Source: a phage. From it: DNA of 64,000 nucleotides. The number at the start of each line of letters is the position of its first letter. The first letter of the stretch is position 1. Positions 9,932 through 59,756 of this stretch are shown in pieces. The notes under the pieces are model-generated. The model saw only the letters and a list, made by a program, of their open reading frames with translations. It was not told the origin of the DNA and made no database searches. The stretch lies in NCBI GenBank assembly GCA_012441205.1, contig GCA_012441205.1_4705.1; one strand, given 5' to 3'. A program made the translations under genes and the position numbers.

Positions 9932-9977
9932 CATAAACCCCCTCTCCCTTCCCTGCTGGGTTGGGAGAGGGATTATG
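9932..9977. repeat. GGAGG-stem palindromic hairpin element (family copy) at convergent gene junction
   Basis: CATAAA-CCCCCTCTCCC-ttCCCtgctGGGtt-GGGAGAGGG-ATTATG; lies between the stop of the + gene (9922) and the stop of the - gene (9978). Confidence 0.6.
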
Positions 9978-11045
9978 TTAACCTAACGTCACCGTCGGTA
10001 AATCAGGATAAAGTTTCTTCAAGCCTGCCATCGTGGTGGTAGTTGTATAATTCTTACCCATCGCAGCAAGAGATGCGTATTTCCTACTGCGAGAGAAAAG
10101 AGAATAGAACCCACTGGATGTTTCCATCCACATCGTGAGGAGTTCTGCATCGTTACCGTGATAGTTCGTTTTACCCCATCCAGGTTTAAACGCATCGGCA
10201 AAATCAATTAAACGCGAGGCTTCAGCGTCGTATTCTTTAAGGGTAAGGTACGATGGAATGCGGTAGTTACGAAACAGTAACGTAATGAGTTCAGGGACAA
10301 CGCTACGGGCACGTTCAGCCGTGATAAGTTCGGTGATCACAGCAGCTGTACGGAAATCGCCGTTAAGACCAACGCTGCTTAACGATTCCGCTAAAGTGGT
10401 CGCCATCGCCACTTTATCCTCCGCTGACCCAGAGTCATACAGACTACGCACATCGATGTAGTTGCCTGCTAATGCGGCTTGACGAATCAACGATGTGACA
10501 ACTGTCCGGTTCGTCTTATAGTCGTTGTAACTGAATTCGGTTCGCGTTTTCCCTTGATCGTCGAGATACCGATCGACAATCGTTGAAAGTTTATAATACT
10601 CATCGCCCGACATCAGACTATCGAGAAGCTTAACGTTTCCATCTTTATCAATAAGCTTCCCTAACGCACCATTGGATTGCTGGTTAATGGTACTGTAAAT
10701 CTGGTCTTTTACTTGCGATAGAATGTTATCGGTTGACGATATATTCAGGCCAGTAACATCTTTGATCTTATTCATCAACGCGTTTTCATTCAGGGAGATT
10801 TTGCCTCCGCTGATATCGATGAAAGAATTAAGATCGCTTATGGAAATCAGGTTTCCTGTTAACGCCGATAATGTACTATTGATACTGTTCGTAATACTGC
10901 TGCGAAAACTGGTTAACGCATCCGCCGCTGAAACAGCGGTACCGCTAACCGCTTTAAGGAGCGTATCACGCCCTGTCGAAAAATCGCTGGTGATGGTTTT
11001 GATCTTGGACGTATCTATACTCGGCAGTTTGTCGTAAAGACTCAT
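9978..11045 (-). CDS. hypothetical protein (355 aa)
   Basis: ORF track 9978..11096; preferred start ATG 11045 with AGGAGG 5 nt upstream (MSLYDKLPS...). Confidence 0.65.
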   Translation of the reverse strand: MSLYDKLPSIDTSKIKTITSDFSTGRDTLLKAVSGTAVSAADALTSFRSSITNSINSTLSALTGNLISISDLNSFIDISGGKISLNENALMNKIKDVTGLNISSTDNILSQVKDQIYSTINQQSNGALGKLIDKDGNVKLLDSLMSGDEYYKLSTIVDRYLDDQGKTRTEFSYNDYKTNRTVVTSLIRQAALAGNYIDVRSLYDSGSAEDKVAMATTLAESLSSVGLNGDFRTAAVITELITAERARSVVPELITLLFRNYRIPSYLTLKEYDAEASRLIDFADAFKPGWGKTNYHGNDAELLTMWMETSSGFYSLFSRSRKYASLAAMGKNYTTTTTMAGLKKLYPDLPTVTLG

Positions 11046-11084
11046 CACGTCCTCCTGAAAAAGAAAAAAGAAATACGGCATAAA

Positions 11085-11110
11085 GCCTACCCACACAATG
11101 GTGGGTAGGC
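11085..11110 (-). other. intra-operon stem-loop (GCCTACCCAC / GTGGGTAGGC)
   Basis: Perfect 10-bp inverted repeat between two co-directional minus-strand genes; possible attenuator or RNA-stability element. Confidence 0.35.
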
Positions 11111-11127
11111 TAAGATCAACATCGATG

Positions 11128-11640
11128 TTAAACTTCTTCGTTTTCTGAACCTAATGATTCAGCATCTGGATCGTCAACAGGAATGGTTGCATCAAAATAC
11201 CGTTTCGTATGCGTGGTTGTATATCCTACGCTATCTGTGATGGAAATCGTAAACGTGACTTCCCTTGCACGGATTAAGCGTAGTTTATTCATGAAGTTAC
11301 GGAACGGCATCGATCCCCGATTCAACTCCTTAATGACGTTTCCCCGAATACTGGAAATGTCTTTATTCGTTTTATCAGGGTGTCGTTTCTTCACATCACG
11401 CATATGTCGGGTAATATACGAATTGAGCTGATTTGCGCCGATCCCTCTCTCCGTATAAATCTGCAACAGGAACTCCGTAAGGAAATCCTGTCTACCCGTA
11501 GGCGTCCAGAAATTGTTACCGTGATTGTAGTTAGTCGCTCGTCCTCGATTGCTTTGAGGATTTTCATCATCGCTTTCATCACGACGCTTAAGCGGATTAA
11601 TGCGTGCGCGGAAAGAGACTTCATTATATTTATTTGTCAT
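11128..11640 (-). CDS. hypothetical protein (170 aa)
   Basis: ORF track 11128..11685; preferred start ATG 11640, which overlaps the upstream stop as ATGA. Confidence 0.6.
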   Translation of the reverse strand: MTNKYNEVSFRARINPLKRRDESDDENPQSNRGRATNYNHGNNFWTPTGRQDFLTEFLLQIYTERGIGANQLNSYITRHMRDVKKRHPDKTNKDISSIRGNVIKELNRGSMPFRNFMNKLRLIRAREVTFTISITDSVGYTTTHTKRYFDATIPVDDPDAESLGSENEEV

Positions 11641-12152
11641 AATACACCAGTGTACTGACTGAGTGCGAAGGTTAGGAGTTCGCAACAGTCTCTCGCTAGT
11701 TTCCTTGTTTTGCGTAATCCATAAGCCGCATCCAAATCGTCACGTTCCGCCAGCGCGTCTAACCACGTCGCAAGTATGCGTCCATACTCGATAACGTCAC
11801 GCATGAGAACGTCGAACCGGATAACACGACCATCGGCATCAGCAAGCCAACGATTGAACGTGATTTGTGGTGCTAGTATTGCATATGTTCTCTCCTCTAA
11901 TGCGATTATGTTTATGTTGCCTTCGTTATCGAACGCTTGATGCCAACGGCGAAGGTCAAGCATCAACGACTCAGCGTCCATATACCACAACGGTAAATAC
12001 GTTTTACGTGCAACGCGTATATCGTAGATGTTGTGAACCCAGGACGTTGTTTTGTAAAGCAACAAGAGTTCGTTTAACCGTTGCCTATCATCTTGAAACG
12101 TCTTCCTTTTATAACGTTGGAACGCACGCCTCAAGAAAAAGCGATGTAACAT
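11637..12152 (-). CDS. hypothetical protein (171 aa)
   Basis: ORF with ATG 12152 and AGGTGA upstream. Confidence 0.6.
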   Translation of the reverse strand: MLHRFFLRRAFQRYKRKTFQDDRQRLNELLLLYKTTSWVHNIYDIRVARKTYLPLWYMDAESLMLDLRRWHQAFDNEGNINIIALEERTYAILAPQITFNRWLADADGRVIRFDVLMRDVIEYGRILATWLDALAERDDLDAAYGLRKTRKLARDCCELLTFALSQYTGVL

Positions 12153-12202
12153 GGCATCACCTATGTATCATTCTTGCAGGCATCAATGAAGCCATCACAA
12201 GA

Positions 12203-12254
12203 AGGTAACGTTATACGTCGCCTTCATGACTGTCATCATGAAGGTAATATAGTC
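12203..12254 (+). promoter_or_regulatory. conserved intergenic element, copy A (candidate phage promoter or regulator site)
   Basis: AGGTAACGTTATACGTCGCCTTCATGACTGTCATCATGAAGGTAATATAGTCC; near-identical to 37921-37976; lies in a divergent intergenic region about 35 bp upstream of ATG 12286. Confidence 0.4.
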
Positions 12255-12285
12255 CTGTTATTTTTTTCAATACGGAGAATGTAAA

Positions 12286-12915
12286 ATGAGCGAATATGGT
12301 GTTGCCCCCGTAGATGATGAACCGCAAGAAGCACCTGATAAATTCGAGGTCCGTCTTGACGAAACCCGTAATATCCGCCAACGATTTATTCAACGCCTTG
12401 AAATGCTGTTAGATAGCGAATTCAAAGATTTCGAGCTTAATCCTGGCGCTGATAACAAAGCCATCGTCGACGTCGAAAACGTCGACCGAATAGGTAAGCT
12501 GTTGTTGAAATCGTTGGGCGATAACGACAAAGTCGACTTAACGTTGAAACGTATCAGTGCCGACCAGGCCATGAATGACAGCGCACTGAAAACAGCACAA
12601 GCCCTAACCGAAACCATGCTGCGCCGCTTAGGTCAGATGGATCAACATCCTCTCGCAGCAGGGGCTGTTTATGAAGGCGAAGTCGTGAAGCCAGTCACGC
12701 CTGAAGAACGTGATCGTCGACTTGGTTTTGCGTCATTGGAAGAGTTCGATAGCAAGGAGTTCTCACCAGGCGTTCTCATCCAGGGACGTGTCGAAGAAAC
12801 CAGCGATGCTTTCTATGCTAGAATGGCTCAACTGACGGCGTCGGTTCGTGAGGAGGTATCTCAGAAGATGGCTGCAGATCATCAGTCTTCGGAGGCGTCA
12901 CACGAGGAGGAATAA
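12286..12915 (+). CDS. acidic hypothetical protein (209 aa)
   Basis: ATG with GGAGA upstream; Asp/Glu-rich product. Confidence 0.6.
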   Translation: MSEYGVAPVDDEPQEAPDKFEVRLDETRNIRQRFIQRLEMLLDSEFKDFELNPGADNKAIVDVENVDRIGKLLLKSLGDNDKVDLTLKRISADQAMNDSALKTAQALTETMLRRLGQMDQHPLAAGAVYEGEVVKPVTPEERDRRLGFASLEEFDSKEFSPGVLIQGRVEETSDAFYARMAQLTASVREEVSQKMAADHQSSEASHEEE

Positions 12916-13606
12916 AATAACTGAACCATTTTATTCCAAAGAACCGCATGAACATCACAGGCGCGTTAGAAAGTTCGATTGCTTCGTAAAGTTTGTCATA
13001 AGCCAGATCGGAATCAGGGATGGTTTCACTGATTCGTCTGGCTACAACCAATACGTTACAAATCGGATTGTCTTCTAACAGCATCTGATTGGGGAGGTGC
13101 CAGCGTTTGAAATCGTAAAAGAACATCGCATTATACGTCTTACGGATTTCTGACGGATGCAGTGTGGCCGGATGACGGTAAATAATCTCAACGCTATCTT
13201 GCGCGCCGAGGTATTGCTGGATGCCTTCTTTTAACGCAATTGCAGCATCTCCCACAAATTCAAACGGGTACGTATTCACATGAACCGAAAAATCCGGTGC
13301 GGCAATCCCTGTCAAGCGGTCTTTCATGTAGTCCGCAACCACGTAACATAATCGCCACATCAACTCCGTCGGAATACATTTATCAAGAATGGTTTCATCG
13401 ATATTTGCCAACGCACCCTTAAACTCTTCGTAAGTGTAAGTAACACCCGCCTGCTTTTCCGGCTCCAGGTTATAGGGTCGGTAATGCCATTTCTTCCCCC
13501 ACTTTCTGATAGCCTCAGGATCCAACGTTGTTGCTACCGCCATTTCGATATCAAGCAGCGCCTCGAGTTCTACGTACACCGTCACTAACGCCGCATTTCC
13601 AGTCAT
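12818..13606 (-). CDS. hypothetical protein (262 aa)
   Basis: ORF; start ATG 13606 overlaps upstream stop as ATGA; 3' end overlaps convergent gene 12286..12915 by 98 bp. Confidence 0.55.
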   Translation of the reverse strand: MTGNAALVTVYVELEALLDIEMAVATTLDPEAIRKWGKKWHYRPYNLEPEKQAGVTYTYEEFKGALANIDETILDKCIPTELMWRLCYVVADYMKDRLTGIAAPDFSVHVNTYPFEFVGDAAIALKEGIQQYLGAQDSVEIIYRHPATLHPSEIRKTYNAMFFYDFKRWHLPNQMLLEDNPICNVLVVARRISETIPDSDLAYDKLYEAIELSNAPVMFMRFFGIKWFSYFIPPRVTPPKTDDLQPSSEIPPHEPTPSVEPF

Positions 13607-14310: not shown

Positions 14311-14312
14311 AA

Positions 14313-14987: not shown

Positions 14988-14996
14988 AAACGTCTC

Positions 14997-15338
14997 CTAT
15001 TGTCGTGTCTGTTGCGGAAATACCCGAAACACCTGGACAATGATGTTCTTGTCCTCGCGGTTGGCGATGTCGATCATGTGTTTTGTTCCAGGACTTTTGA
15101 AATCCCAGAACGCAATTAAATGCGTAATGACATCGCCCATCCACTCATTGCGTCTGAATCCAGCACCTTTACGATAAGGACCATCCCAATCGGCAGGAAA
15201 CGTGGTGTATTTAAACCCGTAATCCTTCGCGTAGCGGCGCACATGCAAATCAGCGCCTGAATGCGCACCGCCAGCAATGAGATGAACTTTGTCGTGAGGA
15301 AGGTTGTGTAACATCTGGTTCATACGCTTTTCGAACAA
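14997..15338 (-). CDS. small protein, possible SLOG/DUF2493-like fold
   Basis: Translation LIAGGAHSGADLHVRRYAKDYG...FPADWDG...GAGFRRNEWMGD...LIAFWD..SPGTKHMI resembles the GG.x.GAD / ADW / RN..M / AFWD..S.GT pattern of that family; recalled from memory, not searched. Confidence 0.4.
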   Translation of the reverse strand: MFEKRMNQMLHNLPHDKVHLIAGGAHSGADLHVRRYAKDYGFKYTTFPADWDGPYRKGAGFRRNEWMGDVITHLIAFWDFKSPGTKHMIDIANREDKNIIVQVFRVFPQQTRQ

Positions 15339-15391
15339 GGGATAATCATCCCAGTAGCGTGATCCCGATACCCCTACACGATAGGGTTCGC

Positions 15392-15712: not shown

Positions 15713-15724
15713 TTATTTAGCCTT

Positions 15725-18157: not shown

Positions 18158-18165
18158 CATAATAA

Positions 18166-18201
18166 CCCACCCTACTACCCCGTTAAGGGCGGTAGGGTGG
18201 G
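18166..18201. repeat. palindromic hairpin (variant of the junction hairpin family)
   Basis: CCCACCCTAC / GTAGGGTGGG outer stem, inner CCC-gttaa-GGG apex; between convergent genes ending at 18157 and 18209. Confidence 0.5.
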
Positions 18202-22796: not shown

Positions 22797-22839
22797 CATA
22801 TTCCCTCCTCCTTCCCTGTTGGGTTGGAGGAGGGTTATG
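22797..22839. repeat. GGAGG-stem palindromic hairpin element (family copy)
   Basis: CATA-TTCCCTCCTCC-ttCCCtgttGGGtt-GGAGGAGGG-TTATG, immediately after stop 22796. Confidence 0.65.
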
Positions 22840-22848: not shown

Positions 22849-22864
22849 AAAAAAAAAAAAAAAA
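22849..22864. repeat. A16 homopolymer tract
   Basis: 16 consecutive A, 10 nt downstream of the hairpin. Confidence 0.9.
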
Positions 22865-22909
22865 TGATAGTCACAGGCTCTCCAATGAAGGAGAGCCGTG
22901 ACCGTCAGT

Positions 22910-25365: not shown

Positions 25366-25388
25366 AAGTAATATAGCCGTGAAAAATG
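25366..25388 (+). promoter_or_regulatory. partial copy of conserved intergenic element (copy C)
   Basis: TAAGTAATATAGCCGTGAAAAATG shares the 17-mer GTAATATAGCCGTGAAA with 37966-37982. Confidence 0.35.
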
Positions 25389-25486
25389 TTGGATTAAGTT
25401 AAATACCGCAACCGCAGCTAATTTTATAGGCTTTTAGCCTAAACCAATCATCTTCGGAATCATCATCTTTGAAACAGGAATCTATC

Positions 25487-26308
25487 ATGGAAAAAGTATT
25501 TGTTTGTAAGTTGTTTACCAACGGCAATAGCCAACCAATGTATCTGACCGATCCTGTTCTAGGTAATCGGAACAGTACCGTATTCAAAGAGGCTTTCGAA
25601 TACGCTAAAAATAAAGCCGTGAGAACACTGACGTCTGATGACTGTATCAACGGTATCACGTGGGCAGAGTTAATCGGTGATGCCGTTCGACACTTCGTTC
25701 GGGATGCGAGAAAACGGGAAATCTGTCTCACGACTATTGTTGTGCGTGAAAACGCAGAAATTTTATCAAACGTTTTGGTTGATTTTAATGACGTTTGTGT
25801 GTTTAATCCAGAGAACACGTTTGAACAATACCTTACTGCCCTGAACAACCAGCTCGGTAAAGATATTCATCCCGAATTCGCCAAGTTAACATATCAGTTA
25901 CTTTTTGACGACGTCGATCCAAATACGAAGATCGATACCAGCTTATCGCCCCTGGTAAAGAAATACGGATCGGTTCTCGCTACGGCAACACCCACCACCG
26001 ATGGTGGTTATGATATCGAATTGGATGATCCATTAAAAGAACAAGAGCCTACTGGGGTTAGGGCGGTACATCACAACCTCGTCGTTAAATCTGATGGATG
26101 CGATGAACATTACGCTATGATAAACGATGAAAACAATTACCGTTTAAGTCAAGCGATTGGTGTTCTACGCTATACCGAACCCACTGTTGTAGACGATTAT
26201 ACATCGACAACAACGCACACCACGTGTTTCATTTTCATCTATCCCAATGAAAGTGTGTACATTACCGACTGCTATGGCAATACCGTAGATAGCTTACGTC
26301 GTTATTGA
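25487..26308 (+). CDS. hypothetical protein (273 aa)
   Basis: Preferred start ATG 25487 with AGGAA upstream (track start 25469). Confidence 0.6.
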   Translation: MEKVFVCKLFTNGNSQPMYLTDPVLGNRNSTVFKEAFEYAKNKAVRTLTSDDCINGITWAELIGDAVRHFVRDARKREICLTTIVVRENAEILSNVLVDFNDVCVFNPENTFEQYLTALNNQLGKDIHPEFAKLTYQLLFDDVDPNTKIDTSLSPLVKKYGSVLATATPTTDGGYDIELDDPLKEQEPTGVRAVHHNLVVKSDGCDEHYAMINDENNYRLSQAIGVLRYTEPTVVDDYTSTTTHTTCFIFIYPNESVYITDCYGNTVDSLRRY

Positions 26309-26315: not shown

Positions 26316-26341
26316 GCCTGTCCTTCGGGGCAGGCTTTTTA
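26316..26341 (+). terminator. intrinsic terminator (UUCG-loop hairpin followed by T5)
   Basis: GCCTGTCC-ttcg-GGGCAGGC followed by TTTTT, directly after stop 26308. Confidence 0.7.
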
Positions 26342-26417
26342 TGCTGTTAAATATCAGGAATAAGAATTAACAAAATAGGAAAATGGTGTGTATATAACAC
26401 AAAGGAGGGAGATGATT

Positions 26418-26534: not shown

Positions 26535-26644
26535 AAACACTGTGTGCATTAGTGTATGACGAGAAATCGTCGAGGCCCCCGTCTTCACGAGGGCCAACAC
26601 CTATGCATGATTATTCATCGTCTGTTAAACAAAAGGTTATAAAC

Positions 26645-26953
26645 ATGAGCAATTTGAACGTTGAATTTACTTCAACAACGCCTGTCATGAATGGTGTTGG
26701 CACTGAAACCAAAATCGTATTAGAACCCATTCCAGGGTTACGCGATCTCGGTGATTTTTATCCACTGATGCCGCGTATACGGAAGGCCTTAAACAGTATC
26801 GATCTTGATTCCAATAAAGATTTCCAACACGATACAGAAAATACCGATCATGTATTGCTGCCATCAGGGATCGCAAAATTCACCTACACGCAAACATTGA
26901 AAGCCTCTGATGGTGAAATCCGTCGTTTTATCGTTGAAGTAGAAAGCGCATAA
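26645..26953 (+). CDS. hypothetical protein (start uncertain; ORF track starts at 26552)
   Basis: ORF; several candidate ATG starts, none with a strong RBS. Confidence 0.45.
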   Translation: MSNLNVEFTSTTPVMNGVGTETKIVLEPIPGLRDLGDFYPLMPRIRKALNSIDLDSNKDFQHDTENTDHVLLPSGIAKFTYTQTLKASDGEIRRFIVEVESA

Positions 26954-26955
26954 AA

Positions 26956-26996
26956 ACCATCCTCCCAACCCGTAAGGGAAGGGAGGATGAAATATG
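26956..26996. repeat. GGAGG-stem palindromic hairpin element (family copy)
   Basis: CCATCCTCCC-aaCCCgtaaGGGaa-GGGAGGATG then AAATATG; between convergent genes. Confidence 0.6.
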
Positions 26997-34048: not shown

Positions 34049-34088
34049 CCTCCTTCCCTAGCCGTCAAGGCCGGGGAAGGAGGATTAT
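34049..34088. repeat. GGAGG-stem palindromic hairpin element (family copy); A10 tract just upstream at 34025-34034
   Basis: CCTCCTTCC-ctaGCCgtcaaGGCcgg-GGAAGGAGG then ATTATAG; between convergent genes. Confidence 0.55.
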
Positions 34089-35877: not shown

Positions 35878-35940
35878 CGGGGACGGCGATGTCCCCTTGG
35901 TTTCTTATTGCCCCGCCTGTACCCGATGGGGTACAGGCGG
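35878..35940 (-). other. two tandem stem-loops between co-directional genes
   Basis: GGGGAC-ggcgat-GTCCCC and CCCGCCTGTACCC-gatg-GGGTACAGGCGGG. Confidence 0.4.
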
Positions 35941-35954
35941 GTGATGTTGATGCG

Positions 35955-37834: not shown

Positions 37835-37920
37835 TTAAAAAGTTCCTCTGTTTCACGTTAATTAAACAACGTATTGATTTCTATTTGACAGAATACGAAC
37901 ATCGTACGTATCTATCACTT

Positions 37921-37976
37921 AGGTAACGCTTACGCGTCGCGTTCATGATACCATGCATCATGAAGGTAATATAGCC
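37921..37976 (+). promoter_or_regulatory. conserved intergenic element, copy B
   Basis: AGGTAACGCTTACGCGTCGCGTTCATGATACCATGCATCATGAAGGTAATATAGCC; near-identical to 12203-12254. Confidence 0.4.
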
Positions 37977-38085
37977 GTGAAAGGATTTGTGTTAACGCAA
38001 GGGTTTTGTTTGTTTTTTAAGAAGGGATGGATTTAGAAGAGGTGTTTCAAGGAAGGTAAACGAGAATAGGTATTTTGATTTAAGT

Positions 38086-38210
38086 AAGATGTTATCTGTA
38101 TCCGTTAGAAGTGTATTGTCTAAGTTATCTTGTTTATCTTAGGTTTAATCGTTTTTATCTTGGTATGTTTAAGTTGTTTTTATTTAACTGTTAAAATGCT
38201 TATCTTCAAA
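38086..38210. repeat. AT-rich tract with reiterated TTATCT/TTATC motifs (iteron-like)
   Basis: gTTATCTgta, gTTATCTtg, tTTATCTtag, tTTATCTtgg, cTTATCTtc within about 120 bp. Confidence 0.5.
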
Positions 38211-38220
38211 ACAATGGATA

Positions 38221-38269
38221 ACATGTGTTTACTACGCTCGTTGAGTTATAACTCAACGGTAACACATGT
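38221..38269. repeat. nested palindrome (cruciform-capable)
   Basis: Outer arms ACATGTGTT / AACACATGT enclosing inner arms CGTTGAGTT / AACTCAACG. Confidence 0.6.
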
Positions 38270-38428
38270 CATCTGTGCATTACACTACGTTACATGCTAG
38301 TTAAATCGGATAACTCAAAAAAACATTTGTGATACTCTTCTTCACGTTGTTCATCAGAGTATCTCGTCTATACTCATTGCATTCGTATACGACATAACCG
38401 TTACACGCTAACGCTACGCTTATAGCTT

Positions 38429-38495
38429 GATAACTCTAAGGATAAAAACATAAACTCGCTTCGCTCGTTTAGTTTTTCTTTTTCTTAGAGTTATC
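38429..38495. repeat. 12-bp perfect inverted repeat GATAACTCTAAG / CTTAGAGTTATC separated by 43 bp
   Basis: Read directly at 38429-38440 and 38484-38495; GATAACTC also recurs at 38308. Confidence 0.6.
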
Positions 38496-38661
38496 CTGTT
38501 GCTCGTCTCTAAAGGACTTCGCTCCTCCCCCGTCCCCCGAAGGGGCCGAGGTCGTGGAAATTTTACTTTCCAAATACATTTACAACATCTGTAAACTTTT
38601 ACTCCAGGTACTTAATCTTATCATTAGAAATTATAAAAGAGAAAATAAACACAAACATAAA

Positions 38662-38698
38662 CCTTCCCCCGACCCGTAAGGGAAGGAGGAAGGGAGAG
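38662..38698. repeat. hairpin related to the junction family (conserved apex CCCGTAAGGGAA)
   Basis: CCTTCC-cccgaCCCgtaag-GGAAGG then GAGGAAGGGAGAG; directly 3' of minus gene stop 38705. Confidence 0.45.
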
Positions 38699-38704: not shown

Positions 38705-39597
38705 TTATTCGGAAACGTTATAACCGAATACTGCTTTACCGTAGGTGTGAGTACCGTCAGCTAACGACAGCACCAACACATGGTTGTATGTAGCGTTAAC
38801 GCCTTTATCGGTAGACCCGGTGGTAGCACCGTTATAGACAAAGGTAGCTGTTTGCAGATTGGTTTTCAGTTCATTGATGATATCATCACTTACACCAGTC
38901 TGTTCTTTAATCAGGGTGGTCAGGTTACCCGCTAAGCCTGCATCGATCTTGGTATCGTTACTGGTAATAGCTTGTAAACCTGCGGTGTAAGTACTGAAGT
39001 CTAACGGATAGGTTAACAGACGTGCTGAGGTCTTGGTACCATCGCCTTCATCAACGTAGGTTAAGTTACCCAGATTGGTAACCTTGATGATGTTAGCCAG
39101 ATCCAGCGTGGTGTTATAAACTTTAACTTGAACAGAGCCATACCACGCCAACGAATCTTCTTTGGCTTCCAGGGTGATCGTCTGGATACCATGCTGGTCG
39201 AAGGTAACCGGCGTAGCTAACGTTTCGGCTTTGATGTCTTTCGCTTTATCCAGGAACTTCTCACCGGAAGGCGTGATCATACCGTAGCGTTGAGCTACAA
39301 GGTCAACCACATCACCGATGGTGGTGTTCGCCTCAACGTTAACACGTACAGCGATCTTCTGGAACCACTTAGCCAGATCCAGACGATGGTAGGTGACATC
39401 TCGGTTATTGAAGTAAGGGGTACCTTCACCAGGACTAAGTGTTAAAGTTGCTTCTGGAGCAGAAGGATTCTTTTCTTTAAGGACGTATTTAAGGTCGGTA
39501 TATTTAAAGCTGGCACCAGTGTCAGCGTTAAGCTGGTTGATCTCATCAACGATAAGTTGCCAAGGTGTTTTTAAAGTAAGCGATACTTGAGCAGTCA
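38705..39597 (-). CDS. paralogous-family protein (297 aa), putative virion structural protein
   Basis: Preferred start ATG 39597 (MTAQVSLTLK); shares Y.R.DL, DLVAQRYGM and LAWYGSV motifs with the family at 50658-54277. Confidence 0.6.
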
Positions 39598-39737
39598 TTT
39601 TCTTCCTCGATAGTTGGTACATCACTCTCAAAAGATGTAAGTGTTTACAGAAATTAATATATTTTATATTAAATGTGAATATTATGGAGAACGACTCCGA
39701 ATCTCCTTTTCGACCATCAAAATCAGAGGACACGAAC

Positions 39738-40283
39738 ATGTCTACTTTAGACTTTAACAAAGCAGCGAAATCCCTTCTGCTTGATCTTATTAACACCAAA
39801 GCGACCCGCACATTGGCTGAAGAAGAACTGCAGTTCGGTACTCCGCAGGAATCTTCCGAACATGAAAAGAACACCGTTATTCAGCTGGACGCGGCGGCTG
39901 AAGCAGCTAACCTGCAGGGTACTCAGCAGTTCTACTACGATCGTCTGGCTCTGTCTGACGTTTTCGCTGATGTAACTGGTGATGTTACTTTCGAACTGCC
40001 GCACGGTACTGACAGCATTCAGGCTTCTGAGCTGGTAAGCAAGCTGGTCACCAAATTCGGTCTGGCTTCCCTGAATGGTGAAATCAGAGAAGAAACCTTC
40101 CAGCTGTCTGCCGGTACTGTTGATGAGGTAATTCTGAATGCGATCGAGGGTGGCCTGGTATACACTGGTACTCTGCGAGTTGCCCTGACCTACGCACTGG
40201 CACCAAAAGACGAACTGGCAACCGTTCTGGCGAATAACGTAGCTGAAGGTTTCGAGAAACCGACCGTTAGCGTTGTTGGCTAA
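39738..40283 (+). CDS. paralogous-family protein (181 aa), strongly codon-optimised, probably highly expressed
   Basis: ATG 39738 with GAGGA upstream; near-exclusive use of CTG, GGT, CGT, CCG, GAA, GCT, ACT, TCT codons; architecture parallels the neighbouring 297-aa protein. Confidence 0.7.
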   Translation: MSTLDFNKAAKSLLLDLINTKATRTLAEEELQFGTPQESSEHEKNTVIQLDAAAEAANLQGTQQFYYDRLALSDVFADVTGDVTFELPHGTDSIQASELVSKLVTKFGLASLNGEIREETFQLSAGTVDEVILNAIEGGLVYTGTLRVALTYALAPKDELATVLANNVAEGFEKPTVSVVG

Positions 40284-40478
40284 TAAGCACATAGAGCAAT
40301 AGTATGGGTTTTGTACAGCTCGGCTATTGATCTTCTACAATTTGGTTGTAACAATCTGCGTGGTTGCACGCTTATCTTTCTCATTGAACGCTTCGTATGA
40401 AGCGTGGTGTTGAAAGGGTTGTGGATCTCCTCAAGCGGCCAGGGACCCAGACCAACCTGAATAAACACAAACACATGT

Positions 40479-40512
40479 TAAGCCCCTCCTCATCCGTTAT
40501 TGGGTGGGGGGG
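40479..40512. repeat. degenerate hairpin related to the junction family
   Basis: CCCCTCC-tcatccgttattgggt-GGGGGGG, between convergent genes ending at 40283 and 40577. Confidence 0.3.
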
Positions 40513-40576
40513 GTCTTATACGTCTTTATGCGTTCCGTTCGTTCTGGAGCGTTTTAGGACGGTTTATGATGGTGTT

Positions 40577-41212
40577 TTACTCAACACTGAACCCGTTCAA
40601 GATGATCGCTTCATAACGCTTACGTTCACGACGTTTGCGTGCCTGCCAACCGTAGATGAATTTCTCATCTTTCTCACGACGTTCCGCTAATTCGATGTAA
40701 TAGGTGCTCTGCATGTCCAGCATCGCATCGATGAGATAATCCTTACCGGTTGCACCACGCTTAGCGATGTAAGCGTCGAGCGCGCTTAACGTCGCAGGTC
40801 CCATCAAACCGTCGGCGTTGATATTCTTCCAGTACGTTTGTCGGTTGTTCATGACGTTCAGATAACGTTGGAGGTTCTTAACCGGGACGGTTTTGCCAGC
40901 ATTGATACCCAGGTCAAAGAGACGGTCAGCTAAGAACACAGAACGTTTCATGACTTCGTCAAGTTTCATCTTATCCCAGAAGTGGGTCTTGTAGATAAAG
41001 AACGCCATTTCCGTGGTAAGGTTACGCATGTTACCGTCCCAGCCGAATTTCGTTTTCAGCGTGGTTTTGTATTGATCGGCGAGTGTTTTCGTAATGCCGT
41101 GGTTCGTGATTCCACCCGAGTCATCGGGATCGTCGACGTAACCTGCTTCGATGCTGGTTTTATCGCGAATGATAAATTCGCACGTGAAATCTTTCTCAGT
41201 AATCTTAGCCAT
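40577..41212 (-). CDS. endolysin, GH108-type lysozyme domain plus peptidoglycan-binding domain
   Basis: AGYVDDPDDSGGITNHGIT matches the GH108 EGGY..DP.D.GG.T..GIT motif; GLMGPATLSAL matches a PG-binding motif; GAGGAG upstream of ATG 41212; no signal peptide or SAR-like N-terminus. Confidence 0.75.
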   Translation of the reverse strand: MAKITEKDFTCEFIIRDKTSIEAGYVDDPDDSGGITNHGITKTLADQYKTTLKTKFGWDGNMRNLTTEMAFFIYKTHFWDKMKLDEVMKRSVFLADRLFDLGINAGKTVPVKNLQRYLNVMNNRQTYWKNINADGLMGPATLSALDAYIAKRGATGKDYLIDAMLDMQSTYYIELAERREKDEKFIYGWQARKRRERKRYEAIILNGFSVE

Positions 41213-41338
41213 TAGAACTCCTCGTTTAAATAACGATTTAGAGGAACAGGAAGGGTCTAGAACGCGATAAACGATTTAACCCAGGCAAACCCTAGATTAA
41301 ACTTTTCGAAGCGTTACAACGCGTTCTAGAACGTTGAA

Positions 41339-41800
41339 TTAAATACCCTTGGTTCCCTTCACGTGATGTGCAATTTCTTCAACCATTGCACGCAGAGCAC
41401 GAAGTTGTTGGTCATGTTCGTACCAACCACCCAACAGAACCCCGCTATACACCATGGTGTCAAGACTTAACAGCCCTTTATCTGATACGTTGATCATTTC
41501 CGGGAACTGTTCTTGAACACGCTGTGCGATAACACCGATCTTCTCGACATCAGGATCGTAGTTGTGACGGAAACGGGCAAGTCCGGTATACGCCATTTCA
41601 CGTAAACGATCACTGAAAGATTCCGGATGATCTTTCAGATAACGAATGTCATGTTTACTACGTTCATCCGAGCGAATGTAAGCGTTAGGAACATCGATAT
41701 TGCTGTTGAAGTACAGCGCACTACCACCGCCTGCAGAGTTCCCCCAATAGAAGCGTGTGATCTCACCGCCACCATTCTCCGTGATGATGACATGTTTACC
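41339..41800 (-). other. S74-like intramolecular chaperone (auto-cleaving) domain region of tail fibre
   Basis: SDERSKHDI Ser-Lys dyad motif near the protein C-terminus. Confidence 0.55.
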
Positions 41801-50609: not shown

Positions 50610-50652
50610 AACATAACCCTCCTCCAACCCGTAAGGGAAGGAGGAGGGAATA
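50610..50652. repeat. GGAGG-stem palindromic hairpin element (canonical family copy)
   Basis: CATAA-CCCTCCTCC-aaCCCgtaaGGGaa-GGAGGAGGG-AATATG; between convergent genes ending at 50606 and 50658. Confidence 0.65.
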
Positions 50653-50657
50653 TGCTG

Positions 50658-53331: not shown

Positions 53332-53341
53332 TGTTTATTCC

Positions 53342-54336: not shown

Positions 54337-56748
54337 TTAAACGTCCTCGATAGGCAAAGGTTTAACAATCAAACGATTGAGCGGATTCGATAGACGCATA
54401 CTGATAGGCTTATACGCAGCATGATTCGTCTCACTTAGAGCCACTGATCTGAAACGACCGTTCAACTGTTTGTAAATCGGTTCTATCCAGAGACCTCGAA
54501 GATCACGTTTACGGAAACGTTGTTCGAACGGTTTGATTGGGGTTACGGTTAACCCACGCAACGACTCTGATGGCAGACGCTCACGAAGGTCGCGTGGTGC
54601 CCGACCTGGGAACGGTGCAAGCCACAAACCATCGAGCGGATTTTTACGGAAACGCAACGAGACAGGATCGCTAATGACTTGTGCCCAATATTGCGTACTG
54701 AATCGAACGGTTTGGGTGTTCTCGTAACCACTACAATCACACCAGGTTGGTTTCGGAGGCGCTTCCAAACTTTCAACCGCTGATTCACGCCAGTTCGTCA
54801 TCGGGTTGTTATCATGCACGAATTTGATAACTTCCGTAGCCTGGTTATCCGTATCATGAACGTTTGCCTGTGCCCAGTCTTCCCACAGTTCTTCACTACC
54901 ACTTACTAAACTCGAACCGAGACGAACGGCGATTTTATTTAGTGGTTTGATTGGGTCACTGTTGATTGTCTGGATAAAATGGATGGTGTAACTGCTCAAT
55001 GTCTTAAGCAGCTGCAGCATTCCGTATTGAATATCCTTAAGACTGGTGACATCTTCCAAATCCTGGCCGGTGGCCTTTGTGAAGATATCGAGAGCCAGAA
55101 TACCCGCCTCTTCTTGACTGATTGCGTCAAGCTCCCAATCCATCGATAAGAACCATTCCTTGTAAAGCTGTCCAATACCGAAGTCGACACCAACATCCAT
55201 GTAGAAGTTTTCAACGATTGCTTCAGCCATGCCTCGAGCTTGATAATGTTCTTGGAGCTGATACATGAACTGATGGCGACGCCAGCCCTGGTAAATCTCG
55301 GTAACGGCGCTCAGAAACTCTTCAGTACTGACGACAGCACGCAGCGTCACTTGCTTATCCAAACACCACCAGATCAGTTTATCGGGAATGATAGCAGGAT
55401 CGGTAATGCTACGGAGATGGTCGAATGTCGGTAGCGTTAACACCCTGACGTGGTTAGCATGGATCTTAGGTACTTCAATCAGCGTCATGCCCATCGAATA
55501 GTTCAGCAAATACAAGAACAGCTTGTATGCATCTTTCATCGACATCGTCATGGTATCACCCGTCACCGGGTTGGTTGTCGTTAACCGTGACTGATACATG
55601 CCTATCGCGCTAAGATGAATCCATTCGTTCAGCAGGAAATCATACTTAGGATACAGTTCACTGTCTGTAAGGTCTTCGGCTTCACTTTCCAACACCTTGG
55701 TCGTTAAGGTATTGTTGTCATGCATCGACATCTTCTCTATCGTGCGGTTAAGCTCGGTATAATACTCCGCTTCGTTATCCCGCGCTAAAGGGAACTGTTG
55801 CTGCATCACGGTGGTGACCTTACGTCTTACCGTGCCATTACCGACGATCTCTTGAAGGTTAAGCGGTTTACGCTCCATGTAAACAGCAGGTTTTAACGTC
55901 TGGGGTATCTCGGAAGCGTCTTGTTTGATCGAGAACGCACCGATTGGAATTCCACGATCGGTTAATACCTTTTGAATGAGCTTATCGTAGTTTTCCGTTC
56001 TGCCCATGTTTCTTTCAACGTAAGCGATGTTACGATAGAACCAGAGCATTTGGGATTCGGTCATGTATCGCTTGAATCGATCGAGACCTTGATGGCTTGC
56101 CAGATAACTCCAGATATGGAAGCTATGGGCATAATGGGTATGACAGTTTTCCCAACGAATACCTTTTATCATCTCAGGTATTTGTGTGAATAGGATGGCG
56201 TATAGCGCAGGCCAATGAAGCATATCGACGCTCTCGTATGCCGGATGTTCCCAGCGTCTGAAGTAATCGTCGATTTCTTGCTGTAAACGTGGAATAAGAT
56301 TGGCCTCGCGTGACTCAACCTCTTGTGTATCGTACCAGAGAATCTCATGATTGCGTGCCGCAATTGCTTTCTCGATATCGATGGGGTTAAGGATACCCAA
56401 GATCAACATACGTTGTTCCGGGTACCGCGCAATTAAACGATTGAAATAATCTCCACCATACGCGTACTCCCTTGCCGTCATGCGATGCCGTAACATGTTT
56501 TCCTTAGTGAACTCGATCTCTTCGAGCGTATCCAGGGAATTTACGGTCATCATTGTCTGACAAGGATGATACTCGCCAGCGAGATTCATGTAGTATAACC
56601 ACGTGCGTGGGTCGTCCCCGACGGCCATCTGGTAGACTTCGGAAACCTTGAGGTTTAACCGTTCTGCCGTGATGTCGCTTTTAATAATCAGGGTGTCCGT
56701 TAGACGCTGCACGCTTTCCGAATAAAGCTGATAGTCAGTGTTGGACAC
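54337..56748 (-). CDS. hypothetical large protein (~804 aa)
   Basis: Preferred start GTG 56748 with GGAGG 7 nt upstream; track start 56817 would overlap the divergent gene. Confidence 0.55.
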   Translation of the reverse strand: MSNTDYQLYSESVQRLTDTLIIKSDITAERLNLKVSEVYQMAVGDDPRTWLYYMNLAGEYHPCQTMMTVNSLDTLEEIEFTKENMLRHRMTAREYAYGGDYFNRLIARYPEQRMLILGILNPIDIEKAIAARNHEILWYDTQEVESREANLIPRLQQEIDDYFRRWEHPAYESVDMLHWPALYAILFTQIPEMIKGIRWENCHTHYAHSFHIWSYLASHQGLDRFKRYMTESQMLWFYRNIAYVERNMGRTENYDKLIQKVLTDRGIPIGAFSIKQDASEIPQTLKPAVYMERKPLNLQEIVGNGTVRRKVTTVMQQQFPLARDNEAEYYTELNRTIEKMSMHDNNTLTTKVLESEAEDLTDSELYPKYDFLLNEWIHLSAIGMYQSRLTTTNPVTGDTMTMSMKDAYKLFLYLLNYSMGMTLIEVPKIHANHVRVLTLPTFDHLRSITDPAIIPDKLIWWCLDKQVTLRAVVSTEEFLSAVTEIYQGWRRHQFMYQLQEHYQARGMAEAIVENFYMDVGVDFGIGQLYKEWFLSMDWELDAISQEEAGILALDIFTKATGQDLEDVTSLKDIQYGMLQLLKTLSSYTIHFIQTINSDPIKPLNKIAVRLGSSLVSGSEELWEDWAQANVHDTDNQATEVIKFVHDNNPMTNWRESAVESLEAPPKPTWCDCSGYENTQTVRFSTQYWAQVISDPVSLRFRKNPLDGLWLAPFPGRAPRDLRERLPSESLRGLTVTPIKPFEQRFRKRDLRGLWIEPIYKQLNGRFRSVALSETNHAAYKPISMRLSNPLNRLIVKPLPIEDV

Positions 56749-56775
56749 GATCGGTCCTCCAAGGAGCCAGTGTAA

Positions 56776-59685
56776 ATGAACGATATAAATAAAGGGCGCG
56801 TCGCCCTCGAACGTCAAATGAGCAATAATGACGTTGCGAAGGCACTCATGAACAAATTTGTCGCTCCTGCTCCGCAGTCACGTCTTTATAATACACGTGA
56901 TGCGGAAGGAGCGAACGGTCGTTTCGGGTTAGTTGTTCCCGACCAAATGACGATGAACACGGTTACGCGTGCTACCGCGACAAACATCGAGGATAATAAA
57001 AACATCCTCGAGCTGTTCCCTGAACTTAAACGCGTGATGCAGATCTATGTTGCCGCGTTGACGAACCCTAACGATCTTAAGACGGTCGAGATGTTTATCG
57101 ACAGCGAAGATTTCCCCGGCAGAGTCGCAGAAATCGTTCAGCCGATGATCGATACCATCGACACGCATTTTAAGAATATCTATAAAATAAAGACGCTTAT
57201 CCCTCGTATCATCGAAGACGTCTTCTTTATCAAGGGCAGTTATAACTTCGTTGTTCTGCCGGAAAGCACGCTCGACCGCGCCATTAATGGTAACGGTCAA
57301 CTGAAACTTGAAGAATACGGATTTAAAGACAACCATTTTGCAAGTTGGGGGCTTCTAGGTAACGACAGTCGCAAACGCCACGAAAATCAATTACCTGCGA
57401 CGGTTTCGATGGAAGATTATTTCTCGGGTGTTAATGAAACCATACCGTACGATCCTGTTGTTCGCATAGACAGCATCAAGTTTACCAATACCCTGCTTCG
57501 CGATAAGGACGGTAAATTCATTGAAGCGAAGATCGATATTCCGGATATGGTTACGGTTGTCGATAACCCAGACATCCTCCGCATGCCTATTCTGCATCAA
57601 CGTCGAGCAGCGACAGCAGTGCAGCGTGCGTTACGCGCAAACACGTTAGGAGGTAGTGGTTTGGTAACGCTGTCAGGCGATCCGACCCTAACCGCTAACC
57701 GACGTGAGCTGTCGCAAGAACAGGTTAACGAGATCTGGAATAAGCTCAACATCCAGCGCCACACCAAGGTATCGCCCGTTTACGCGCTGGCAACCCCAGA
57801 TACGCTTGATCGTCAAAGCGTTGGCCATCCTGGCGTGATGCATGTACCACCTGAGGCATTAGAACCCGTACATGCGCCCGGTGATCCTGAGAACCATATC
57901 GGGTATTTGGTTCAGTTGGATGAGTTTGGTTATCCAGTACGTTTGGTTGAAGATGCGGCGTATTACAAGCAGTTGGAAGGTCGGTTGTCGAAGATCACCG
58001 CAGATATCGCAGGTACGTCAAGCAACGGCATGGCGAGCGAGATGATTGGTGCAGCCAAGAACATGATCCAAGGTACGTCATGTAATCAGGTAGACATGTC
58101 GGCCTTCGTATCATCGTACGAATCGCTGATGCAACGTTACATTGTCGAACGTATCGTTAACGGTTATCTTGGCAGTGCGGTGGAGATCGGTGCGACATCA
58201 TCGTTTTATCTGTCGATGCTTGCTCGTAGCCTCGCTCACAAGCAGACCCGTGTTTTGTTTATTCCTCGAGAGATGGTGACTTACATCGCCTATGAATACA
58301 ACAAATACGGTATCGGTCGTTCGCTGCTTGAAAGTACGAAGATGATCTCATCGCAACGAGCCATGCTCATGGTTCAAGAACTGATGGCGAAAATCAAAAG
58401 TTCGTTGAACTATACGACGCTAAGCGTAATGCTTGAAGACACCGACAGAAACCCGGTCGATACCGTCGAACAAGCACTGCATAGTTTCGCTCGTGTCTAC
58501 CAGTCTGGTTTCCCGTTGGGTGAAACTAACCCGATGGATATCATCAACGCGTACGAACGAAGCTCGATTAGATTGAAGGTTGAGGGGAATAACCCACGCT
58601 TCCCGAAATTGAATACAGACGTCAGTGTTGAGCAGCGTAACTATCAGTCTCCTGATAATGAGCTGATGGATCGTTACCGTCGTGACCATTTCATGGGCTT
58701 GGGTGTGTCTCCGGAGATTATCGATACTTCCTACCAATCTGAATTCGCAGCTTCTGTGATTACAGCTAACGCGATGCAAGAGAAACAGTTCACGGTTTGT
58801 CGTGAGGTGATCACGAATGGGTTATCGGACCACATCAAGAAATATACGGCATACAGTCCCGTGTTGTTGACGTCGTTACGAAACACGGTTCGTGCGAACA
58901 TGTCTAAGCTTTCCCAGGCACAATTGAAGCAGCTTTTTGGTAGCGATTTCGAAAACGGTGTTATCCGTAACGTTAACGCCTATCAGGAGATTGACGACCA
59001 ATCAGCAACAATGGATCTGGATTACACTAAACCAGAAGTCCAGGAAGTTATTGCCGATGCTTATGTGTCCATGTTCTTAAACAGCCTGCGTGTGCGTTTA
59101 CCGGATAGCAATGCCCGTCGCCTTGAAGATCAGGTACGTGAATATAATCAGTACAAGGAAGCGATTACTGCGCAACTTGATGATTATTTAACGCCTGATT
59201 ACGTCATGGGTCTGGGTGGGGTTGATGAAACAACGCTGCAGATGATCCGCGCATGCATTATTGGTACCGCGATGCGTACGTGGGCAAAAGAGAACAACTT
59301 CAATCAGGAGCTGGCTGATCTCTTCAGTCTTGACGATAAGAAGAATGCCGTGCAAGATTGGAAACGTATGTCCATGGAACATATTGAAGTCATGGGTAAA
59401 TGCATGGGTGATTTTGCATTGTATATTCAGAATCTGACGAAGAAGATTGAAGAGAAGATGGGAGCTCAAGCACAGGACGGTAGCGTTTCATCTGATGGTT
59501 CGTGGTCATCCGATTCAAGTAGCGATACCGGTTCTTCTGATGACTTCGGTGGCGGTGACGATTTCGGAGATACCGATTTCGATACCGAAACGATGGAGGA
59601 AACCTCAACAGAAGAAACAACCACATCTGAGGAAACGACGACCGACACAACGTCAGAAGACGACACTTCAGGTGACATTGTCTAA
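56776..59685 (+). CDS. hypothetical large protein (969 aa) with acidic Ser/Thr/Asp/Glu-rich C-terminal tail
   Basis: ATG 56776 with AAGGAG upstream; C-terminus SSDSSSDTGSSDDFGGGDDFGDTDFDTETMEETSTEETTTSEETTTDTTSEDDTSGDIV. Confidence 0.65.
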   Translation: MNDINKGRVALERQMSNNDVAKALMNKFVAPAPQSRLYNTRDAEGANGRFGLVVPDQMTMNTVTRATATNIEDNKNILELFPELKRVMQIYVAALTNPNDLKTVEMFIDSEDFPGRVAEIVQPMIDTIDTHFKNIYKIKTLIPRIIEDVFFIKGSYNFVVLPESTLDRAINGNGQLKLEEYGFKDNHFASWGLLGNDSRKRHENQLPATVSMEDYFSGVNETIPYDPVVRIDSIKFTNTLLRDKDGKFIEAKIDIPDMVTVVDNPDILRMPILHQRRAATAVQRALRANTLGGSGLVTLSGDPTLTANRRELSQEQVNEIWNKLNIQRHTKVSPVYALATPDTLDRQSVGHPGVMHVPPEALEPVHAPGDPENHIGYLVQLDEFGYPVRLVEDAAYYKQLEGRLSKITADIAGTSSNGMASEMIGAAKNMIQGTSCNQVDMSAFVSSYESLMQRYIVERIVNGYLGSAVEIGATSSFYLSMLARSLAHKQTRVLFIPREMVTYIAYEYNKYGIGRSLLESTKMISSQRAMLMVQELMAKIKSSLNYTTLSVMLEDTDRNPVDTVEQALHSFARVYQSGFPLGETNPMDIINAYERSSIRLKVEGNNPRFPKLNTDVSVEQRNYQSPDNELMDRYRRDHFMGLGVSPEIIDTSYQSEFAASVITANAMQEKQFTVCREVITNGLSDHIKKYTAYSPVLLTSLRNTVRANMSKLSQAQLKQLFGSDFENGVIRNVNAYQEIDDQSATMDLDYTKPEVQEVIADAYVSMFLNSLRVRLPDSNARRLEDQVREYNQYKEAITAQLDDYLTPDYVMGLGGVDETTLQMIRACIIGTAMRTWAKENNFNQELADLFSLDDKKNAVQDWKRMSMEHIEVMGKCMGDFALYIQNLTKKIEEKMGAQAQDGSVSSDGSWSSDSSSDTGSSDDFGGGDDFGDTDFDTETMEETSTEETTTSEETTTDTTSEDDTSGDIV

Positions 59686-59706
59686 ACGGATGTAAAAAAA
59701 ATAACA

Positions 59707-59756
59707 CATAGTTAACCTTCTCCCCAACCCGATGAGGGAAGGGGAGAAGGGCTATG
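59707..59756. repeat. GGAGG-stem palindromic hairpin element (family copy)
   Basis: CATAG-ttaa-CCTTCTCCCC-aaCCCgatgaGGGaa-GGGGAGAAGG-GCTATG; between convergent genes. Confidence 0.6.

Follow-up and report, generated by a model that had tools for sequence, protein, structure and literature searches.

The ends of transcripts have been mapped in two Pseudomonas jumbo phages, phiKZ and 201phi2-1. In phiKZ, ONT-cappable-seq detected 133 termination sites, including six two-way regions between convergent genes, and the mapped 3' ends yielded a motif found in most of the predicted intrinsic sites, BCCYCCCCHWWDGGGRRGGBYTTATKYYGT, that is, a stem-loop and then TTAT (Putzeys et al. 2024, PMC10914365). 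In 201phi2-1 the main motif is the same, and 132 termination sites, 15 of them two-way, were reported (Poppeliers et al. 2024, PMC11512511); combined motifs form elongated hairpins there, and eight terminators stop transcription of a reporter in vivo in uninfected Pseudomonas chlororaphis (PMC11512511). Here we analyze a family of palindromic hairpins with CCTCC/GGAGG-type stems in 64,000 nucleotides of phage DNA (contig GCA_012441205.1_4705.1 of assembly GCA_012441205.1), a stretch that we call the window. We conclude that these hairpins are very probably factor-independent terminators of the phiKZ/201phi2-1 type, belonging to a Goslar-like nucleus-forming jumbo phage and acting in both directions at convergent junctions. 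They do not represent a new kind of element, as this kind has already been mapped by experiment in phiKZ, and for phiKZ and 201phi2-1 others have shown that RNA 3' ends lie at such elements and that reporter transcription is terminated. In the window we observe directly their structure, their placement in the genome, the strand rule obeyed by a flanking TATG box and their agreement with the phiKZ family.

Escherichia phage vB_EcoM_Goslar, a nucleus-forming jumbo phage of 237 kb with a circularly permuted record, shares 95.7% identity with the window, which runs across the ends of that record. At the right end of the window (62698-64000, minus strand, cut by the window end) lies the 3' part of a homolog of GP123, the subunit with which the phiKZ polymerase binds the TATG core of promoters; in Goslar the gene occupies 39828-41624. 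By both features the genome is that of a nucleus-forming jumbo phage with multisubunit RNA polymerases of its own. Three more near-identical genomes are found in IMG/VR. No relative in the phage collection lies between ~96% DNA identity and <60% protein identity, and IMG/VR gave the three near-identical genomes only; covariation was therefore taken from one homologous junction across genera. For genome-wide counts the whole Goslar genome was assembled with its gene table, in which intergenic DNA makes up 6.7%.

The initial annotation listed nine hairpins, and all nine are present. Folding of the RNA gives a single dominant hairpin in each case, with -19 to -30 kcal/mol, far more stable than dinucleotide-shuffled sequence (z -2.7 to -6.2). 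An inverted-repeat search gave mainly short palindromes in coding regions and overlooked interrupted stems, and it was replaced by a 50-nt sliding RNA fold of both strands of the whole window and a custom stem scan. In this fold the nine take the top ranks among hairpins stable on both strands, and all are intergenic. The window has 8 perfect G+C-rich stems of 7 bp or more whose 5' arm is rich in pyrimidines, 10 stems of 9 bp or more and 5 hairpins flanked by TATG on both sides; the means in 100 dinucleotide shuffles of the window are 0.26, 0.9 and 0.02, respectively. In seven of the nine listed elements the stem is perfect over at least 9 bp, its 5' arm rich in pyrimidines (CCYCCCC) and its 3' arm rich in purines (GGGRRGG); the elements at 38662 and 40479 are imperfect copies. 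Most are built in two tiers: the outer stem, 9-10 bp long, leads through a 2x2 internal loop (AA/AA or UU/UU) to a CCC/GGG apex closed by a loop of 4-5 nt. They had been described as occurring in both orientations, which holds for the apex only (AA..GTAA..AA or TT..TGYT..TT); the outer stem is, by symmetry, pyrimidine-arm-first on both strands. A scan of the whole window on both strands with Rfam 15 gave no family match at the gathering score.

The hairpins lie in the gap at eight of the nine convergent junctions of the window, the ninth being an overlapping gene pair, 12286..12915 (+) and 12818..13606 (-). Thus the claim that nearly every convergent junction is marked stands, except that the 38662 element follows a minus gene at a same-direction junction and is one-way. 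The window's only overlapping convergent pair is adjoined by a hairpin of another setting, at 13000-13043 (-): it has -23 kcal/mol, is followed by TTATG and lies inside the open reading frame 12818..13606 (-), ~180 nt before the stop.

How closely do these elements resemble the mapped ones? They match the phiKZ motif in arm composition, in the TATGYYGT box and in placement. Like the terminators of phiKZ and 201phi2-1, they have a C-rich 5' arm and a G-rich 3' arm, TTAT(G/T)YYGT after the stem in place of a U-run and CATAA on the 5' side; in all three phages the sites lie 3' of genes and are two-way between convergent genes, and the phages have two multisubunit polymerases of their own. In phiKZ, however, the stems are plain, 8-9 bp long, with loops of 4-5 nt (UUCG, CGAA, GUAAU) and about -15 to -18 kcal/mol, whereas the window phage, read here from its sequence alone, has mostly two-tier hairpins of -24 to -30 kcal/mol. 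Specific to the lineage is the two-tier stem, in which an AA/AA internal loop is topped by a CCC-GNRA-GGG apex. The terminator-like sequence CCCCC-AA-CCC-GTAA-GGG-AA-GGGGG, with a U-rich tail, was seen at 1925-2022 of IMG/VR contig 3300020577_003345, which is unrelated to Goslar by BLAST; the apex module itself is therefore not unique to the Goslar lineage.

The closest comparison is offered by one homologous junction. The gene before the 50610 element is a homolog of phiKZ gp130, and in phiKZ the junction after gp130 is likewise convergent, reading CATAA-GCCCTCCC-GTAAT-GGGAGGGC-ATTATGTTGT. According to the supplementary table of the phiKZ study, T059 (133067, -) closes the PHIKZ130 unit and T060 (133099, +) closes the PHIKZ129 unit (PMC10914365); both ends fall on this single hairpin. 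Twelve mapped phiKZ ends that we placed on the sequence lie 3-9 nt (most 5-9) past the stem and, where there is a TATG box, inside it or at most 2 nt beyond. We then built a covariance model from six mapped phiKZ terminators of the same geometry, leaving out the post-gp130 junction, and searched with filters off; two earlier phiKZ alignments were set aside, as MAFFT had put several stems out of register. In the window the model gives 11 matches at E (expectation value) <= 0.03, every one of them a listed element or the sites at 26308 (+) and 11071 (-), and the one-way elements score well on the transcribed strand only. In Goslar it gives 42 matches at E <= 1, of which 40 are intergenic, the two others lying in a 75-codon open reading frame at a convergent overlap. 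Enrichment at gene junctions, which the initial annotation had proposed to check by such a scan, is therefore found, with 40 of 42 matches in 6.7% of the genome. The elements of the window, with E values from the phiKZ-trained model, are as follows; the terminator assignments are predictions.

9932..9977, both strands: putative two-way terminator; CATAA, stem CCCTCTCCC/GGGAGAGGG, TT/TT loop, apex CCC-TGCT-GGG, TTATG; TATG at 9974-9977 (+) and 9932-9935 (-); situated between the gene stops at 9922 (+) and 9978 (-); -28.3 / -26.5 kcal/mol, z -5.5 / -5.1; E 1.4e-4 (+), 5.5e-4 (-).
11075..11111 (hairpin 11084-11111), minus strand: putative one-way terminator, absent from the earlier list, 3' of minus gene 11128..11685; stem AGCCTACCCAC/GTGGGTAGGCT, then TTATGCCGT on the minus strand; -20.7 kcal/mol, z -5.3; E 0.022 (-), 1.5 (+).
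18158..18201, both strands: convergent-junction hairpin (the 18166 element); stem CCCACCCTAC/GTAGGGTGGG, TA/CG internal loop, CCC..GGG apex; TATG on the minus strand only (18158-18161), the plus strand having ATAAGGTTTATTTG; -26.2 kcal/mol, z -4.1; Goslar counterpart labelled 'putative transcriptional terminator'.
22797..22839, both strands: putative two-way terminator; stem CCCTCCTCC/GGAGGAGGG, TT/TT loop, apex CCC-TGTT-GGG; TATG at 22836-22839 (+, TTATGCTGT) and 22797-22800 (-); z -6.2 / -5.8; E 6e-4 (+), 2.6e-3 (-).
26316..26347, plus strand: putative one-way terminator 3' of plus gene 25469..26308; stem GCCTGTCC-TTCG-GGGCAGGC, then TTTTTATGCTGT, with U-run and TATGCTGT box together; -15.7 kcal/mol, z -4.7; terminator label in Goslar; top match of the model, E 3.3e-5.
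26949..26996, both strands: putative two-way terminator (the 26956 element); stem CATCCTCCC/GGGAGGATG, AA/AA loop, apex CCC-GTAA-GGG; TATG at 26993-26996 (+, ATATGCCGT) and 26949-26952 (-); -23.5 kcal/mol, z -5.6; the TAA stop of gene 26552..26953 sits inside the CATAA box.
34049..34088, both strands: convergent-junction hairpin; stem CCTCCTTCCC/GGGAAGGAGG, TA/CG loop, apex GCC-GTCAA-GGC; flanks ATTATAG (+) and TTGTATTG (-), a variant box without exact TATG; -28.4 kcal/mol, z -5.8; E 0.029 (+); terminator label in Goslar.
38656..38698, minus strand: putative one-way terminator at a same-direction junction (the 38662 element), 3' of minus gene 38705..39598; minus RNA CCUUCCUCC-UU-CCC-UUAC-GGG-UC-GGGGGAAGG, with one G-U pair, then UUUAUGUUUG; -21.2 kcal/mol; TATG on the minus strand only; E 0.025 (-), 6.8 (+).
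40479..40512, both strands: degenerate copy at a convergent junction, 196 nt past the plus stop and 65 nt before the minus stop; TATG absent, flank TCTTATACG; -19.2 kcal/mol, z -2.7; E 2.5; the Goslar counterpart is a better hairpin (CCCCTCC..GGAGGGG) and is labelled terminator there.
50610..50656, both strands: putative two-way terminator 3' of the phiKZ gp130 homolog; CATAA, stem CCCTCCTCC/GGAGGAGGG, AA/AA loop, apex CCC-GTAA-GGG, then AATATGCTGT; TATG at 50651-50654 (+) and 50612-50615 (-); z -5.8 / -5.5; E 5.6e-4 (+), 3.6e-4 (-).
59707..59756, both strands: putative two-way terminator; CATAG, stem CCTTCTCCCC/GGGGAGAAGG, AA/AA loop, apex CCC-GATGA-GGG, then GCTATG; TATG at 59753-59756 (+) and 59707-59710 (-); -30.4 kcal/mol, z -6.1.

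TATG stands on both strands in five of these elements (9932, 22797, 26956, 50610, 59707) and on one strand in four (minus: 18166, 38662, 11084; plus: 26316). The architecture described for the family is shared by most members, from which 18166, with TATG on the minus strand only, and 34049 and 40479, with TATAG or TTATAC, depart. At 38662 a base change in the window phage makes a G-U pair in the minus RNA and a C-A mismatch in the plus RNA. A classical intrinsic terminator has a run of ~6-8 U; here the tail is UUAUG or AUAUG, with no more than 2-3 consecutive U, and a U-run occurs only at 26316 (+) and 47045 (-). The family does lack the classical U-tract, as had been noticed, but the 26316 hairpin, set apart as the one textbook terminator, is not separate: because it also ends in TTTTTATGCTGT, it belongs to the same signal class. 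Bacterial two-way intrinsic terminators likewise use one palindromic G+C-rich hairpin for both units, with complementary flanks that extend the stem; they differ in that their hairpin stands between an A-run and a run of 6-8 U, where the window elements have CATA(A) and (T)TATG and at most 2-3 consecutive U. Two further sequences adjoin listed elements. After the 22797 element, at 22849-22897, comes a run of 16 A and then a second hairpin, 22876-22897; the minus strand reads hairpin, 11 nt, U16, and the minus gene at this junction may therefore have two tandem stop signals. The Goslar record starts and ends at this same junction, repeating part of the hairpin. The 195-nt stretch before the 40479 element (40284-40478) was considered as a structured RNA and rejected, its z score being only -1.25.

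Across the Goslar genome the hairpins follow the ends of genes. A hairpin with a C-rich and a G-rich arm is present at 16 of 16 internal convergent junctions that have a gap and at the junction across the record ends (17/17), and inside the annotated overlap in two of the three overlapping convergent pairs. Perfect G+C-rich stems of at least 7 bp are intergenic in 55 of 89 cases. Between genes, pyrimidine-first stems outnumber purine-first ones by 33 to 6 (p = 1.4e-5); within genes the counts are 2 and 3. The family extends beyond convergent junctions, many copies lying 3' of minus genes within long same-direction runs. Most telling is the TATG box. Where a strand is transcribed into a hairpin, the box occurs 0-8 nt from the stem in 41 of 71 cases; where the strand is not transcribed, the count is 3 of 39 (Fisher p = 1.4e-7), and for hairpins in coding regions it is 5 of 68 strands. 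The spacing is mainly 1-3 nt, and the bases that follow are [C/T][T/C]G[T], i.e. TATG-Y-Y-G-T. The box tracks the direction of transcription, being on both strands at convergent junctions and on the transcribed strand at same-direction junctions. The CATAA to the left and TTATG to the right of convergent-junction elements are thus the same box seen on both strands. Two-way termination for the phage polymerase, one of the roles that the initial annotation considered plausible, gains support from this strand rule, from the phiKZ motif match and from the homologous two-way phiKZ junction.

Conservation between phages points to structure and box. At the junction after the gp130 homolog a strong hairpin is present in nine of nine nucleus-forming jumbo phages examined, with hosts in Escherichia, Pseudomonas (two phages), Erwinia, Salmonella, Xanthomonas, Ralstonia, Vibrio and Klebsiella. 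The stem sequences differ; the CATA..TATG flanks are kept in most, and the hairpin of Klebsiella phage Eowyn is purine-first. Given unrelated stems and kept flanks, it is the structure and the TATG box that are conserved, not the GGAGG sequence.

Termination at the elements of the window phage, which we infer from these observations, would proceed as follows. The RNA would fold into a very stable hairpin with a C/U-rich 5' arm and a G/A-rich 3' arm, and TATG, usually TATG-Y-Y-G-T, would come 1-3 nt past the stem instead of a long U-run. If phiKZ is a guide, the RNA would end in or just after UUAUG, 5-9 nt beyond the stem. The box could substitute for the U-run in that UUAU makes a weak RNA-DNA hybrid, while a pyrimidine and then G would form a pause site for multisubunit polymerases; the elemental pause of these enzymes has at its core a 3'-terminal pyrimidine with G as the next base. 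CATAA, where present, could pair with UUAUG and so lengthen the stem toward the 3' end. A palindrome with a pyrimidine arm and a purine arm is its own reverse complement in kind and would read the same on both strands; with CATA(A) on its left and (T)TATG on its right it would therefore be a full signal for polymerases arriving from either side. Both transcription units would be stopped at a convergent junction and antisense read-through into the facing gene prevented, whereas at a same-direction junction, with TATG on the transcribed strand only, the element would work one way.

Several points weigh against termination as the function of these elements. Three of the nine listed elements lack an exact TATG (34049, 40479 and the plus strand of 18166). 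The 3' ends mapped by nanopore sequencing could in part reflect exonuclease trimming back to a stable hairpin. Near-identical copies and exchange of the apex, described below, show that part of the similarity is due to copying and not to selection at each site. The enzyme that is stopped could be the virion, the non-virion or the host polymerase. Finally, a literature search found no transcript-end mapping for Goslar or the window phage, the published Goslar RNA-seq being at gene level.

A further question concerns the box itself, is TATG read at the stop as it is at the start? TATG is the core of phiKZ late promoters, with G as the start site (PMC4666361), and a structure of 2026 shows it held as non-template single-stranded DNA in a pocket of GP123, the beta-like subunit of the phiKZ non-virion polymerase; this pocket is reported to be incomplete in the transcribing complex (PMC12809450). 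While elongating, the phage polymerase might read TATG once more in its bubble and keep the register (the RNA ending at U, with G next), and the sequence-specific pause would let the hairpin release the transcript. If so, one recognition pocket would serve both start and stop, the box substituting for the U-run. Consistent with such recognition, the Goslar GP123 homolog, 27% identical overall, retains 8 of the 14 published pocket residues as well as Arg156, a backbone contact; the TATG strand rule is strict, the box is kept in at least six further genera with unrelated stems, and phiKZ 3' ends lie at the U-G step or at most 2 nt from it. On the other hand, a generic weak hybrid with a pyrimidine-G pause would account for the box without specific recognition. 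Given the incomplete pocket reported for the transcribing complex, and given that the host polymerase, too, is stopped by 201phi2-1 terminators, we consider specific recognition of TATG during termination possible but unlikely, and we would not bet on re-reading of the box by the elongating enzyme. No paper linking the terminator box to the GP123 pocket was found in the literature searched. That the four bases used to start are also contained in the stop box points to a direct way of testing how termination works in these unusual polymerases.

Whether the TATG at the hairpin base marks a start site had been left undecided by the initial annotation. It is part of the conserved terminator box, and among phiKZ promoters P067-P126 no late start site falls on a hairpin-adjacent TATG, the nearest being P075, 9-10 nt after T064; TATG nonetheless is the phiKZ late-promoter core. 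In a search for free-standing late-promoter TATG in Goslar intergenic DNA, sense-strand TATG is mildly enriched (64 vs 42), most instances being start codons or following imperfect hairpins. Early promoters are a separate matter. The 9-mer CTATATTAC occurs three times in the window, always on the minus strand (12244-12252, 25368-25376, 37966-37974), each time in the gap upstream of a minus-strand gene and inside a longer common box, TTTCACGGCTATATTACyT. In Goslar six exact copies occur, each of them intergenic and on the minus strand. Early (virion polymerase) promoters in the phiKZ promoter table have the same core, TATATTAC, and the CTATATTAC boxes are therefore probably early promoters of the Goslar lineage.

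Could the hairpins act on RNA that has already been read through? Such elements would mainly process or stabilize 3' ends, these being formed by a nuclease or by exonuclease trimming, with the mRNA protected outside the phage nucleus. The missing U-run and the unusual stability of the stems (-19 to -30 kcal/mol), often capped by a GNRA-type loop, would suit this role, and trimming would likewise leave 3' ends a few nucleotides past the stem. A parallel is the 'hairpin rule' for mRNA 3' ends of Mimivirus, a large virus whose own enzymes transcribe within a compartment: palindromes, not U-runs, mark gene ends, including those of convergent pairs. The Mimivirus hairpins are rich in A+T, and an RNase III-type enzyme cuts them as processing and polyadenylation sites. 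The likeness lies in palindromes at gene ends, whereas the stems of the window are G+C-rich, are followed by a conserved box and are accompanied by evidence that favours termination. A stabilizer would not need a conserved, strand-specific TATG-Y-Y-G-T at or beyond the 3' end, and the helices, ~12 bp and a few A-U pairs, are short for RNase III. Moreover, motif-bearing terminators of 201phi2-1 block expression of a downstream reporter in uninfected cells (PMC11512511). We therefore regard processing as the main function as improbable, although a protective role following termination could coexist with it. Neither 3'-end processing nor protein binding, both suggested in the initial annotation, gained support. 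The nucleus-associated RNA-binding protein ChmC was examined as a binder of the hairpins and rejected, its published peaks lying near start codons and having no motif.

Less probable still is that the hairpins are selfish, copy-pasted extragenic palindromes of the REP or MITE kind, spread by recombination and piling up in gene gaps. Signs of copying there are: ~14 Goslar copies have a nearly identical 32-nt core, CCYTCYCC-AA-CCC-GTAA-GGG-AA-GGRGARGG, and two Goslar sites have ~50 identical nucleotides in common, flanks included. The apex is mostly in one orientation on the plus DNA strand, regardless of the direction of transcription. At the 9932 junction (window 9940-9971; Goslar 224384-224415) Goslar has AA-CCC-GTGA-GGG-AA, whereas the window phage and two IMG/VR genomes have TT-CCC-TGYT-GGG-TT. 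Here the central 14 nt vary between close strains (TGCT and TGTT forms) while the outer stem is constant, and the variant apex is that of other copies in the genome, which suggests exchange between copies and not point mutation. E. coli REP elements resemble the family as repeated imperfect palindromes limited to post-gene gaps, with near-identical copies in either orientation. Yet the window elements have neither the REP consensus nor a RAYT-type transposase, and no target-site duplications or associated transposase of any kind accompany them; they carry a downstream TATG box that depends on the direction of transcription, and their position is kept across distant phages, the same junction being occupied by unrelated stems in phages at ~25% protein identity. 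Copy exchange is better read as keeping a functional cassette uniform, in line with the terminators that we favour.

Least credible of all are hairpins that control translation by hiding or exposing a ribosome-binding site (the GGAGG arm) and a start codon (the ATG of TATG): GGAGG does lie 4-9 nt before ATG in most copies, so that the mimicry pointed out at the outset is real in the sequence. Yet it can have no such function at convergent junctions, where the ATG points into the 3' end of the opposing gene and no gene follows in that direction, and the mapped RNAs of phiKZ end at or before that ATG. For four Goslar genes, G47, G111, G167 and G183, the annotated start codon is the ATG within a terminator's TATG box, and the G-rich arm lies where a ribosome-binding site would be. 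Gene callers prefer an ATG after GGAGG, and some annotated starts may be artefacts; for these four, either the start is a gene-calling artefact or the stop signal is coupled to the start of the next gene.

If the elements are terminators, the ends of transcription units in the Goslar lineage, which serves as the E. coli model of nucleus-forming phages, can be read directly from them. The Goslar record carries 18 'putative transcriptional terminators' annotated with ARNold, which cover the counterparts of 18166, 34049, 40479 and 50610 (four of the nine listed elements) and of 26316. The counterparts of 9932, 22797, 26956, 38662 and 59707 are unlabelled, and these window sites would be additions to the public record. 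The hairpin-plus-TATGYYGT signal, a stop signal on this reading, is common to jumbo phages of Escherichia, Pseudomonas, Klebsiella, Xanthomonas and Ralstonia, and is thus wider than the two mapped Pseudomonas phages; the Erwinia and Salmonella loci have one hairpin-plus-TATG site each. As compact two-way elements, such sequences may also serve as insulators in E. coli constructs.

Three other places in the window deserve mention. Between two minus genes, 37835-38661 comprises ~830 nt without an open reading frame of more than 56 codons; it holds one promoter-like box and is unannotated in Goslar too. At 35912-35941, again between two minus genes, a perfect 13-bp stem with neither TATG nor a U-run represents another kind of strong hairpin. 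A pair of adjacent strong hairpins, also of a different kind, occupies 883-929 in the divergent gap 863-972.

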